Below, piece by piece: positions 18,339 through 19,074 of a stretch of 25,288 nt of DNA. This stretch comes from a virus (lineage: Duplodnaviria > Heunggongvirae > Uroviricota > Caudoviricetes): positions 1 through 25,288 of IMG/VR virus record IMGVR_UViG_2565956635_000009; one strand, given 5' to 3'. Positions within the stretch are counted from its first letter, which is position 1; each line of letters opens with the position of its first letter. Below the pieces are notes generated by a model. That model did no database searches. It had not been told where the DNA came from and saw only the letters and a list, made by a program, of their open reading frames with translations. The position numbers were made by a program, and so were the translations under genes.

Positions 18339-18539
18339 TCAGCTTGAATGTTGTGGGGAGGAATTAATCATGATCTGCTTAATCTCTGCCCTGATGCGAC
18401 GGTTTGATTCCATGGTGCACTCAACACAGTGTCCGTTGTAAACCCAGCGTTCACTGTCATGTCCGTGCTTACATGGTTTTCCGGTGTAGTAGCGTTTAAG
18501 TCCGCGCTTTGCGGCATCAATACGTGTAATGATTTCCAT
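18339..18539 (-). CDS. Small Cys/His-rich protein at the cII position (about 66 aa)
   Basis: ATG at 18539 (MEIITRIDAAKRGLKRYYTGKPCKHGHDSERWVYNGHCVECT...) with a weak CAGGG site; lies between the Cro-like and O-like genes. The track's longer starts have no ribosome-binding site. Function unknown. Confidence 0.4.
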   Translation of the reverse strand: MEIITRIDAAKRGLKRYYTGKPCKHGHDSERWVYNGHCVECTMESNRRIRAEIKQIMINSSPQHSS

Positions 18540-18619
18540 GGTAAGCCCTGTTATTAGTATTGGGATTACGGTCATTTTGTGCTGACACAAAAAAAAGATC
18601 AACCACATTTGGTTTTTTA

Positions 18620-18634
18620 TTACCCTTAAGGTGC
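18620..18634. promoter_or_regulatory. Operator-like variant site TTACCCTTAAGGTGC
   Basis: Shares the TTACC half-site and the variant GGTGC half-site with the site at 18988..19002; lies between the post-cro terminator and the cII-position gene. Confidence 0.3.
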
Positions 18635-18640
18635 GAATAG

Positions 18641-18667
18641 ATATTAAAAGACCGCCGGATGGCGGTC
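18641..18667 (-). terminator. Rho-independent terminator just downstream of the Cro-like gene (tR1-like position)
   Basis: Minus-strand RNA: GACCGCC-AUCC-GGCGGUC hairpin followed by UUUUAAUAU. Confidence 0.55.
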
Positions 18668-18689
18668 TACAGAGGGTTGTGGCTGGATA

Positions 18690-18920
18690 TCATGAGTAGA
18701 AGAAGTATGCCAGTTCTGCTTTTGAGCGCAGCCATTGTCTTGTTTTACAGGCTTTAAAAAGCCCATTCATCAATACCTTACCTGGCATTTTGCGCTTACC
18801 TGTTAAGTGAGTCTGGATATAGTGACTCGTCGTTCCGGCTTCCTGTGCGAAGGCTTCACGCTCATCCGGAGTAAGTGCAAGCCAGTGCTTTTTGAAATCG
18901 AAATGTCCGTTATCGCTCAT
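18690..18920 (-). CDS. Cro-like early regulator (76 aa)
   Basis: Small basic protein transcribed divergently from the repressor gene, first gene of the rightward-early operon (cro, cII-position gene, O, P). Call is by position and size; no confident motif match. Confidence 0.5.
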   Translation of the reverse strand: MSDNGHFDFKKHWLALTPDEREAFAQEAGTTSHYIQTHLTGKRKMPGKVLMNGLFKACKTRQWLRSKAELAYFFYS

Positions 18921-18945
18921 AGCTATTGCCTGATATTTATTTCAG

Positions 18946-19019
18946 ATAATAAATATTCACCTATAAGGTAACAAAAATCAAGGATAGTTACCCATGAGGT
19001 GCATTTACCTGTTGGGTAA
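18946..19019. promoter_or_regulatory. Divergent immunity promoter/operator region (OR-like)
   Basis: Candidate rightward-early promoter on the minus strand (-35 TTGTTA 18974..18969, -10 TATTAT 18951..18946); operator-family sites TTACCCATGAGGTGC (18988..19002) and TTACCTGTTGGGTAA (19005..19019) plus a GGTAAC ... GTTACC pair at 18967..18992. Confidence 0.5.
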
Positions 19020-19074
19020 TATTGCTTTAAATTGAATCATCTTCTGATTCAGATATGAGGCGATTTTCCAGAAA

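Follow-up and report, generated by a model that had tools for sequence, protein, structure and literature searches.

The CI repressor of phage lambda is inactivated through RecA-stimulated self-cleavage, and lambda CII is an HTH protein. Repressors of another kind have been described in phages related to epsilon15. The repressor of Salmonella phage SPC32H is reported to be a DNA-binding tetramer touching two palindromic sites (PMC9638917; PMC9986798), and inactivation by an antirepressor has been described for the SPC32H and ZX5 repressors (PMC9638917; PMC9782041). Overexpression of the ZX5 homologue represses lytic genes (PMC9782041). In the RefSeq record of epsilon15, repressor sites are annotated as such and lie dispersed before several operons, and the record lists neither a promoter nor a repressor site for the gp39-gp40 interval. 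The record of phiV10 (DQ126339 / NC_007804) already marks terminators 3′ of p41 (Cro-like), p40 (repressor) and p44 (P-like), and contains no annotated operator or promoter. No transcript map of a Uetakevirus was found in the literature searched.

We analyzed a stretch of 25,288 nucleotides of viral DNA (IMG/VR record IMGVR_UViG_2565956635_000009), referred to as the window. It has the same gene order as phiV10 (PhiV10p40-p44) and is 98.6% identical to it in nucleotide sequence between 18200 and 19800; as judged from these similarities, the window is a phiV10-like (Uetakevirus, epsilon15 group) E. coli prophage. The element was found in 540 of 5,426 complete E. coli genomes (∼10%). The region is almost identical to that of a phage already sequenced and annotated, its repressor/Cro control region included; the repressor family has solved structures, and the increments over existing annotation are modest. 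The recE-like and recT-like genes are two ORFs in the window, whereas one fused gene is annotated in phiV10. A scan of viral contigs (IMG/VR) yielded 80 near-identical loci, which were used for population variation and are uninformative on diversity; the diversity set was taken from genome contigs and phage records. The alignment of nine relatives covers the genera Escherichia, Enterobacter, Salmonella, Klebsiella, Superficieibacter, Erwinia and Samsonia. A mosaic junction with TL-2011b/ZX5 lies at 18597. The features discussed below are collected in Table 1.

Table 1. Predicted and annotated features of the immunity and early-right region and of related modules (window coordinates).
Feature	Position	Strand	Basis and remarks
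Prophage repressor Rep (PhiV10p40), 194 aa, two HTH domains	19075..19659	+	Pfam HTH_3 1.2e-9; PDB 5D50
Cro-like 76-aa HTH protein (PhiV10p41, epsilon15 gp39)	18690..18920	-	PHROG 35; divergent from rep
Candidate promoter of Cro-like gene	18946..18974	-	TTGTTA-17-TATTAT, overlaps O1; consensus scan, 9/12 matches, predicted
OR-like operator cluster	18957..19019	.	motif scan; three putative sites
O1 (putative)	18957-18971	.	TCACC..GGTAA; other strand ends GGTGA
O2 (putative)	18988-19002	.	TTACC..GGTGC
O3 (putative)	19005-19019	.	perfect TTACC-N5-GGTAA
Intrinsic terminator, 3′ of Cro-like gene	18638..18668	-	stem-loop 18668-18649 + tail TTTTAATATCT
Operator variant O′	18620..18634	.	TTACCCTTAAGGTGC; gene-sense GCACCTTAAGGGTAA; directly past terminator
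Candidate replication-operon promoter Pint	18574..18602	-	-35 TTGATC 18602-18597, 17-bp spacer, -10 CAAAAT 18579-18574
Degenerate proximal operator position	18560..18574	.	gene-sense TGACCGTAATCCCAA; 6/10 half-site bases
66-aa zinc-module protein (PhiV10p42, epsilon15 gp40, PHROG 1081)	18339..18539	-	profile match 7.7e-43
O-like replication initiator, HTH_36 + DnaT domain	17508..18323	-	Pfam/PHROG; internal iterons 17920-18026
Lambda P-like helicase loader	16726..17526	-	Pfam Phage_lambda_P 3.1e-56
Mirror-image module after rep	19680..19793	+	terminator 19680-19699, distal operator 19717-19731, PL-like promoter TTGACA-17-AATTAT (19751-19779), proximal operator 19779-19793
Third module, after P-like gene	16612..16722	-	short hairpin + T-run ∼16722-16701, operators 16674-16688 and 16612-16626, promoter TTGATT-17-TTTAAT (16654-16626)
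Fourth module, before terminase small subunit	13142..13211	-	terminator 13211-13194, tandem operators 13160-13174 and 13142-13156
Genes opening PL operon (candidate antiterminators in one alternative)	50 aa 19813-19965; 99 aa 19968-20267		PHROG 898 and 856, no known function

The Rep protein matches the SPC32H repressor (5D50_A) over residues 1-190 with E = 4e-42, that is over its full length including both HTH domains and the C-terminal oligomerization region. Its Pfam matches are HTH_3 (residues 106-147) and a YdaS-like HTH (residues 21-61), and the phiV10 homologue is annotated as a putative transcriptional repressor. A protein with two HTH domains whose SPC32H homologue is reported to be tetrameric differs from the lambda repressor. 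Epsilon15 and SPC32H carry homologous repressors and the same TTACC-N5-GGTAA half-sites as the window. The 76-aa protein encoded on the opposite strand matches PHROG 35 ("transcriptional repressor") at 5.6e-13. Its similarity to the N-terminal HTH of Rep is weak (27% over 41 aa), and its family profile hits PDB 8BNY, an "immunity repressor", with E = 0.012; the window protein itself has no match in Pfam, where 5 of 18 homologues weakly match HTH_31. A small HTH gene diverges from rep across shared putative operators, the arrangement of a Cro/CI-type pair.

These putative operators were defined from sequence by the motif TTACC-N5-GGTAA, which is over-represented in the window: it occurs in seven perfect copies, all of them intergenic in control positions or beside a gene start, and 26 matches with at most two mismatches compare with 7.0 ± 2.5 in shuffled sequences. 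Across the 80 related loci, the half-sites of the OR-like cluster are fixed and the central 5 bp drift. Fixation in ∼79 related prophages extends to the GCACC variant of O2 and the GGTGA variant of O1, which makes a graded operator affinity plausible. Two variants ending in GGTGC had initially been placed in the divergent region. One of them, O2, is located there, whereas the other is O′ and lies outside this region, past the terminator. Putative operator pairs 17-18 bp or 62 bp apart are found at OR, at PL, after the P-like gene and before terS.

With lambda, the locus shares the divergent repressor/Cro pair, three operators, a terminator right after cro, an O-like initiator with internal iterons (tandem repeats of 24 bp × 2.6 and 18 bp × 3.1) and a P-like loader. 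The initial annotation had described such a lambda-like layout, with a terminator at the position of tR1 and a protein unlike CII at the cII position, and our analysis agrees with it and places this protein ahead of O/P-like genes. Unlike lambda, the window yielded no homologue of N or CII and no nut site, and it contains a separate operator-linked promoter candidate past the terminator.

The hairpin behind the Cro-like gene starts 21 nt past the stop codon and reads, on the minus strand, AGACCGCC-ATCC-GGCGGTCT, then TTTTAATATCT. Its stem of 8 bp contains six G-C pairs and is closed by a loop of 4 nt, after which follows UUUUAAUAUCU. The MFE is -15.6 kcal/mol (z = -3.3), and an equally good fold occurred in 1 of 200 shuffles. 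All nine diverse relatives keep the hairpin and six keep the U-tract, which is absent in two Klebsiella relatives and in epsilon15, where the hairpin follows gp39. Three stem polymorphisms segregate in the population, all still paired as G-U on the cro-sense RNA. A simple terminator scan of 18200-19900 gave two sites where 1.5 are expected, a count that is not significant alone; together, the strength, position and conservation of the hairpin go beyond chance. By these sequence measures, the hairpin is a real terminator, as initially proposed for 18641..18667 and as annotated in DQ126339 (putative rho-independent). Its U-tract is short, with four consecutive U (UUUU), then A/C, then AUAUCU, so that we infer termination at 18668-18649 to be possibly partial, in which case read-through may matter.

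A terminator at this position raises the question of how the replication genes behind it are transcribed. Under a lambda-like scheme, the hairpin would act as tR1 and the replication genes would be transcribed only from the cro promoter, with an as yet unrecognized phage factor, for instance a small PL-operon protein, allowing read-through. The position of the hairpin equals that of lambda tR1, the first two genes of the PL operon (PHROG 898 and 856) have no known function, and antiterminators are diverse and easily missed. But neither N nor Q antiterminator families were matched among the early ORFs scanned against Pfam and PHROGs, and an arginine-rich N-terminus is absent from the 50-aa and 99-aa proteins that open the PL operon. 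Motifs resembling boxA are not enriched (4 versus 4.8 expected), and none occurs in 18600-19800, near the early promoters, a search that strongly diverged nut sites could escape; an Rfam scan returned tRNA only. These negative searches are consistent with the earlier remark that no N-like protein or nut-like site is evident. Moreover, the three relatives without a U-tract have nothing at this site to antiterminate, and a conserved promoter-like cassette is located downstream of the hairpin. We therefore regard an unrecognized antiterminator as quite improbable.

This promoter-like cassette, designated Pint, consists of two hexamers that are invariant columns in the nine-sequence alignment, separated by a spacer whose length stays constant while its sequence varies, as one would expect of a promoter. 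In the related IMG/VR loci, 72 of 73 scorable copies have TTGATC and all 80 have CAAAAT; CAAAAT is also kept in TL-2011b/ZX5 despite the mosaic junction. Pint is likewise retained in epsilon15 and the Klebsiella phages, whose hairpin is without a U-tract. Each hexamer matches the consensus at four of six positions, and the site is not listed by a simple promoter scanner because the threshold was 9 of 12 matches. Further upstream on the minus strand, TTCGCA was considered as a -35 element overlapping O′ and discarded for want of a usable -10 at 16-18 bp.

The layout of Pint is collinear with three more modules in the window, which follow the repressor gene, follow the P-like gene and precede terS, and whose hexamers are closer to the consensus than those of Pint. 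The two operators of the third module are 62 bp apart, the same distance as at PL; its counterparts are annotated as a terminator in phiV10 and as a repressor site in epsilon15. Equivalents of the fourth module are annotated in epsilon15 as well (terminator 39646-39672, repressor site 12-27). In the Pint module, O′ is collinear with the distal operators of the others. Its ACC-N5-GGTAA part is retained in all 78 scorable related loci, and its first two bases are polymorphic (GT in 49, GC in 26, TC in two and TT in one). The sequence at 18560-18574 aligns with the proximal operators; TTACC stands at this position in epsilon15 and in the Klebsiella and Samsonia relatives. Consensus, spacing, conservation and analogy with these modules suggest that the replication genes probably have their own repressor-linked promoter, for which promoter activity of 18602-18574 is presumed. 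Repression by Rep via O′ is conceivable and uncertain, given a degenerate proximal operator and the polymorphism in the left half of O′.

Alternatively, the TTGATC and CAAAAT blocks may owe their conservation to a different role, as a site for some other DNA-binding protein or as part of an RNA leader. In that case the hairpin would be a leaky attenuator with partial termination, and the replication genes would be expressed purely by read-through. The short U-tract fits this explanation, as do hexamers that match only 8 of 12 positions and escape the scanner, and a CC-N6-GG palindrome abutting TTGATC, which could be a protein site. It accounts poorly, however, for blocks that sit at -35/-10 spacing and position, for the collinearity with three modules having better hexamers, and for a spacer of constant length and variable sequence. 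We consider it unlikely.

We propose instead that the replication operon begins at Pint. In this model, the divergent Rep and Cro-like genes are each closed by their own intrinsic terminator, and past each terminator the same cassette would follow, in which 17-19 bp of A/T-rich sequence separate a distal operator from a sigma-70 promoter whose -10 region adjoins a proximal operator. The cassette on the rep side would be the PL-like promoter of the recombination operon, and on the cro side TTGATC-17-CAAAAT (18602-18574) would drive the genes for the 66-aa, O-like and P-like proteins. The Cro-like gene would be transcribed on its own, as a monocistronic unit that stops at the hairpin (18668-18649), and read-through from its promoter would be a possible extra. 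An operator-linked promoter between the terminator and the 66-aa gene would make the replication operon independent of cro read-through and N/nut antitermination unneeded. In the lysogen, Rep bound to O′ would keep Pint silent; a bridge to OR or to the weak half-site on the proximal side may contribute. Taken as a whole, a phiV10/epsilon15-type immunity and early-right region with a replication operon on its own repressor-linked promoter, without need of N/nut and with a 66-aa zinc module, is in our view reasonably probable. The repeated cassette offers a testable model for the silencing of all operons of Uetakevirus prophages without a lambda-style antitermination cascade.

The first gene behind Pint encodes the 66-aa protein, which is annotated as hypothetical protein p42 in DQ126339 and is homologous to epsilon15 gp40. 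In epsilon15, a cytosine methyltransferase gene lies between gp40 and the initiator gene. The match to PHROG 1081 covers the full length of the protein (residues 1-66). A longer reading of the gene, an 89-aa ORF from 18608, was rejected: it would begin before the candidate -35 element, and the start of the 66-aa form is the one that carries the conserved N-terminal sequence M-[EK]-I-I-T-R. Comparison of the window with the Tyrion, Superficieibacter and Klebsiella homologues gave pN values of 0.04-0.11 and pS values of 0.70-0.73, and by this measure the ORF is a real gene under purifying selection. It contains the motif C23-K-H25-G-H27 ... C38-V-E-C41, so that the residues of the initially reported C-x-H-x-H ... 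C-x2-C cluster are present. In the homologues, C23, H27 and C38 never vary and C41 is kept in at least 90%, and H25 is replaced by R or Y; the variable H25 argues for C-x3-H ... C-x2-C as the likely metal ligands rather than the cluster as first given.

AlphaFold2 predicts the structure with a pLDDT of 90.5. In residues 1 to ∼50, the predicted fold comprises a short helix, a β-hairpin with C-x3-H, and C-x2-C opening a long helix, a ligand arrangement that looks like that of a treble-clef zinc finger. Searches of Pfam, NCBIfam and PDB, among others, revealed neither a structure nor a family with tested function for this protein: Pfam gave only a chance-level match to YneP (E = 0.097), comparison of the profile with PDB sequences yielded nothing beyond a chance match to sarcosine oxidase delta, and the module of PHROG 1081 type has no entry in Pfam, NCBIfam or PDB. 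It is nonetheless widespread, being carried by 15,611 representative proteins; tandem arrays of 2-5 copies are frequent among them, and some have an HNH domain at the C-terminus. Both the sequence and the predicted fold of residues 1 to ∼50 are shared with phage EndoVII/HNH (and GIY-YIG) homing endonucleases (N-terminal part of PHROG 1035; PHROG 1081). The 66-aa protein covers only positions 45-106 of the PHROG 1035 profile (EndoVII/HNH endonuclease) and contains no nuclease domain and no HNH match in Pfam, whereas longer relatives match the full profile and some also Pfam HNH. As far as these profile comparisons go, it is a free-standing, nuclease-less version of a zinc module that phage EndoVII/HNH endonucleases carry at their N-terminus, where it probably serves DNA targeting. 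It has a single copy of the module where many relatives have 2-5 in tandem, and its gene is fixed at the head of the replication operon, while the endonuclease modules are scattered and mobile-looking.

Could this gene be a functionless, decaying leftover of a homing endonuclease whose nuclease domain has been lost? The full-length relatives are indeed EndoVII/HNH endonucleases at unrelated sites in lytic phages, as expected of mobile genes, but the strong purifying selection (low pN versus saturated pS) and the conservation of length, start and position in at least seven genera render such decay hardly credible. The place of the gene, first after cro like lambda cII, its resemblance to a small nucleic-acid-binding module and its conserved position across Uetakevirus-like prophages would also suit a functional CII analogue, that is an unstable protein that activates the synthesis of repressor and integrase and decides on lysogeny. 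CII similarity is lacking, however: the CII family (PF05269) was unmatched among the early ORFs in Pfam and PHROGs, and the site TTGC-N6-TTGC does not occur in 18300-18950 and is unenriched in the window, which bears out the initial statement that the protein is unlike lambda CII. In a search for a PRE-like leftward promoter antisense to cro, the sole plus-strand match (TCTACA-16-TATCAT, 18666-18693) was at chance level and is unconserved in Tyrion. The module is, in addition, found mostly in lytic phages and fused to nucleases, and we judge a CII-like role very unlikely. From its domain associations and gene position, our best guess for the 66-aa protein is a role as a small DNA-binding accessory factor in the replication operon.

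A more far-reaching version of the preferred model would extend to the whole lytic programme of epsilon15/phiV10-type phages, which would run without any antitermination. Each of the operons, for recombination, for replication, behind the P-like gene and for packaging/late functions, would then be a cassette insulated by a terminator and equipped with its own promoter, which the tetrameric repressor would gate directly via paired operators. The 66-aa protein would be a zinc finger that once targeted a homing endonuclease to DNA and has been domesticated to regulate replication or the lysis-lysogeny decision. We regard this extension as rather doubtful. The 66-aa gene ties a large, uncurated family of zinc modules (∼15,600 cluster representatives) to a conserved regulatory position, which makes the binding target of the module tractable. 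This position is preserved even in a Samsonia prophage with a different initiator gene, which retains the synteny of rep, cro, hairpin, promoter, zinc-module gene and replication genes.

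Over 18200-19800, the window shares 98.6% identity with Escherichia phage phiV10 (Uetakevirus, epsilon15 group), and 540 of the 5,426 complete E. coli genomes carry similar sequence. PhiV10-like phages match the entire window from the integrase through the immunity and replication genes to the packaging genes, and the gene order of the window is the one annotated in the phiV10 record; the plus strand corresponds to "leftward" on the lambdoid map. Because this record contains the genes listed in the table as well as rho-independent terminators behind p40, p41 and p44, both headline features of the initial annotation, a terminator behind the Cro-like gene and a Cys/His-rich 66-aa protein, were already publicly annotated. 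The region is ordinary and known from the annotation of phiV10 and epsilon15, and the initial annotation was largely correct. Three things are added here: an un-annotated promoter/operator cassette past the terminator and its symmetry with PL, population evidence for maintained operator variants, and the assignment of the 66-aa protein to a zinc-module family that is very large, uncurated and linked to homing endonucleases.

Coordinates of genes, operators and promoter modules
Feature	Position	Strand	Sequence or composition	Location or source
PhiV10p40, putative repressor	19075-19659	+		phiV10 annotation
PhiV10p41, hypothetical	18690-18920	-		phiV10 annotation
PhiV10p42, hypothetical	18339-18539	-		phiV10 annotation
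PhiV10p43, primosomal/DnaT-like initiator	17508-18323	-		phiV10 annotation
PhiV10p44, lambda P-like	16726-17526	-		phiV10 annotation
O3	19005-19019		perfect TTACC-N5-GGTAA	divergent region
O2	18988-19002		GGTGC at end	divergent region
O1	18957-18971		TCACC...GGTAA	divergent region
O', operator variant	18620-18634		GCACCTTAAGGGTAA	directly after terminator
-35 block	18602-18597	-	TTGATC	cassette after cro
-10 block	18579-18574	-	CAAAAT	cassette after cro
Degenerate operator			TGACCGTAATCCCAA	between CAAAAT and ATG of 66-aa gene
Module after repressor gene			terminator 19680-19699, operator 19717-19731, TTGACA-17-AATTAT, operator 19779-19793	followed by recombination operon
Module after P-like gene	16606-16726	-	hairpin and T-run, operator 16674-16688, TTGATT-17-TTTAAT, operator 16612-16626, ATG	P-like to DUF1064/resolvase-like gene
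Module before terminase small subunit			terminator 13211-13194, -10-like TACTAT with TG before, tandem operators 13160-13174 and 13142-13156

The intrinsic terminator behind the Cro-like gene is real, and we infer its efficiency. On the minus strand, the hairpin AGACCGCC-ATCC-GGCGGTCT (18668-18649) begins 21 nt past the stop codon of the 76-aa gene and is followed by TTTTAATATCT; the RNA folds with -15.6 kcal/mol (z = -3.3), a stability equalled by 1 of 200 shuffles. The hairpin is found in all nine aligned relatives. Three stem polymorphisms occur among IMG/VR loci, one A to G and two C to T; each still pairs, as G-U on the cro-sense RNA, and this fits selection on the RNA hairpin. Epsilon15 and two Klebsiella sequences carry a C/U-rich tail behind the hairpin instead of a U-tract; they retain the promoter cassette with a weak or absent terminator. 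The proposed analogy to tR1, the lambda terminator behind cro, holds for position, but not beyond it.

Past the terminator, the gene strand reads hairpin and T-run, CTATTCG, O', 17 bp of A/T-rich sequence, TTGATC, a 17-bp spacer, CAAAAT, the degenerate operator and the ATG of the 66-aa gene. This cassette is collinear with three further places in the window (alignment A3), the modules of the table. In each of the two complete modules (after rep, at the PL-like promoter, and after the P-like gene), the centres of the paired operators are separated by 62 bp. The immunity genes are thus symmetrically flanked: each divergent regulator gene is closed by a terminator, beyond which an outward-facing, operator-linked promoter would open the next operon. 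The promoter after cro is putatively active and O' putatively a site of repression. A CC-N6-GG palindrome at 18603-18612 (CCAAATGTGG; CCATATATGG in Tyrion) abuts the -35 of this promoter, and the spacer of the PL-like promoter contains a related sequence (19760-19771); the Tyrion positions (L002) are about 3230-3245 and 4405-4420. A second regulator may bind the palindrome, or its occurrence may be due to chance.

We aligned the spacer between cro and the 66-aa gene from nine diverse sources: the window, TL-2011b, Enterobacter phage Tyrion, epsilon15, a Klebsiella phage and prophages of Klebsiella, Superficieibacter, Erwinia dacicola and Samsonia. Invariant columns concentrate in the hairpin core, GGTTGAT (-35 block), a T-run and AAAAT (-10 block), while the inter-hexamer spacer is constant in length and variable in sequence. 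Among 80 IMG/VR loci with near-identical 66-aa genes (55 distinct upstream sequences), TTGATC is kept in 72 of the 73 scorable loci and CAAAAT in all 80. TL-2011b and ZX5 match the repressor, cro, terminator and O' of the window at 96-97% identity. Homology to these two and to HEMP4, which share the immunity region and carry another replication module, ends at 18597, the edge of the -35 hexamer, placing a mosaic junction inside the promoter after cro. Past it, TL-2011b and ZX5 show CAAAAT at the right distance, then a 60% identical 66-aa gene and a different replication module. The distant Samsonia prophage retains the full order of rep, cro-like gene, terminator, promoter and 66-aa gene, followed by a different initiator and a P-like gene.

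When the early-left, early-right and nin-like ORFs were scanned with Pfam and PHROG, no N, Q or CII family was detected. BoxA-like matches stayed at chance level, with none in the early promoter regions, an Rfam scan returned tRNA-Arg only, and no lambda CII-type TTGC-N6-TTGC lies near the junction of cro and the 66-aa gene. This negative evidence is consistent with the earlier statement that neither an N-like antiterminator nor a nut-like site is evident. Given the promoter cassette past the terminator, absent antitermination machinery needs no further explanation.

The operator motif TTACC-N5-GGTAA occurs in seven perfect copies in the 25 kb and, at ≤2 mismatches, 26 times, compared with 7.0 ± 2.5 in shuffles. 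Two variants ending in GGTGC had been placed in the divergent region between rep and cro. One is indeed there (O2), but the second, O', lies outside, right past the terminator. Across the population, canonical operators have fixed half-sites and a drifting central 5 bp; fixation extends to the variant half-sites GCACC (O2) and GGTGA (O1), indicating that these variants are maintained, which would be consistent with graded affinity. O' reads ACC-N5-GGTAA everywhere, with its first two bases polymorphic (GT 49, GC 26, TC 2, TT 1). Rep is homologous over its full length to the repressor of SPC32H (PDB 5D50, E = 4e-42), reportedly a tetramer on DNA whose DNA-binding pairs touch two palindromic sites and which is released by an antirepressor (PMC9638917; PMC9986798). 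Overexpression of the ZX5 Rep homologue turns off lytic genes (PMC9782041). By analogy, operator pairs at 17-18 bp or 62 bp would suit an SPC32H-type tetramer. In the epsilon15 RefSeq record, dispersed "repressor" sites are annotated before terS, gp3 and the tail fibre gene; three more lie at OL and another follows the replication gene, but none is annotated between gp39 (Cro-like) and gp40 (the 66-aa counterpart). The gp3 site is equivalent in position to a block within 9560-10260 of the window, between the terminase large subunit and portal genes. Operator-like sites at 9623-9637 (perfect) and 10240-10254 (one mismatch) flank this block, which contains tRNA-Arg(TCT) (9960-10036, +) and strong plus-strand terminator-like hairpins (10080-10115 and 10200-10215).

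The 76-aa protein matches PHROG 35 (5.6e-13), aligns weakly to the N-terminal HTH of Rep and weakly matches a PDB "immunity repressor" (E = 0.012); a curated Pfam search with it matched nothing. Position, mainly, and weak HTH evidence suggest that it may be Cro-like.

The 66-aa ORF (MEIITRIDAAKRGLKRYYTGKPCKHGHDSERWVYNGHCVECTMESNRRIRAEIKQIMINSSPQHSS) is a real gene: comparison with its homologues in Tyrion, Superficieibacter and Klebsiella gives a pN of 0.04-0.11 and a saturated pS of 0.70-0.73. The reported C-x-H-x-H...C-x2-C cluster is present, but its H25 is not conserved. Among 23 homologues, C23, G26, H27 and C38 are invariant, C41 nearly so, and H25 is replaced by R or Y, making C23/H27/C38/C41 the likely ligand set. 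PHROG 1081 (unknown function) covers the protein over its whole length (7.7e-43), and there is a weaker match to the N-terminal part of PHROG 1035 "endonuclease VII"; Pfam, NCBIfam and PDB sequences gave no match. A family profile matched 15,611 proteins (E ≤ 0.001; 1.84 billion cluster representatives), many with two to five tandem copies and some with a C-terminal HNH nuclease. Phage proteins opening with the module (Klebsiella KpV52 gp08, JenP1 and a Vibrio phage protein) are full-length matches to PHROG 1035 and are encoded at unrelated genomic places. AlphaFold2 confidently (pLDDT 90.5) predicts a short helix, a beta-hairpin and a long helix from residue 39; in this model, the hairpin carries C-x3-H and the long helix opens with C-x2-C, an arrangement that would resemble a treble-clef zinc finger. 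The model matched no solved structure; BFVD matches were uncharacterised phage proteins and the N-termini of three endonucleases, an EndoVII, an HNH and a group I intron (GIY-YIG) enzyme. The 66-aa protein is a free-standing, nuclease-less copy of a module used by several nuclease classes, which suggests a DNA-targeting role. Its gene is always the first in the replication operon, the next gene overlapping or following after a short gap; from this constant position, our best guess is that the protein binds DNA as an accessory to replication or to the control of replication.

Within the O-like initiator gene (region 17887-18026), origin-like iterons of 24 bp x 2.6 (ATCCCGTTTTTGGGATCATTCAAC) and 18 bp x 3.1 have the core CCGTTTT(T/C)GGG in common; immediately upstream of them is a 12-bp repeat x 2.4.

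In 13135-13220 (-), the listed ORF of the terminase small subunit begins with a TTG at 13220 (224 aa), as in the phiV10 annotation, and this extension crosses both the terminator 13211-13194 and a tandem pair of operators. Starting at an in-frame ATG (13142/13139) would yield a protein of about 198 aa, the length given in the epsilon15 annotation, and only from residue 28 does the protein match the PHROG terS profile; the true start probably lies further downstream than annotated. The first operator is directly adjoined by an extended -10-like element, TG-TACTAT. Immediately upstream of this terminator and the operators preceding the packaging genes, 13261-13599 (-) encodes a 112-aa protein that belongs to PHROG 536 'transcriptional regulator' and matches nothing in Pfam or the PDB. 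It corresponds to epsilon15 gp49, for which the epsilon15 annotation notes similarity to N15 gp46, and is a candidate late-gene regulator.

At 20264-22023 (+), RecE-like exonuclease (273 aa) and RecT-like (322 aa) are separate overlapping ORFs. They are separate genes in Tyrion as well, whereas phiV10 has a single fused 'recET' annotated across this span, with 1 nt more; this points to a frameshift that distinguishes the two, or to a sequencing error in either the window or phiV10.
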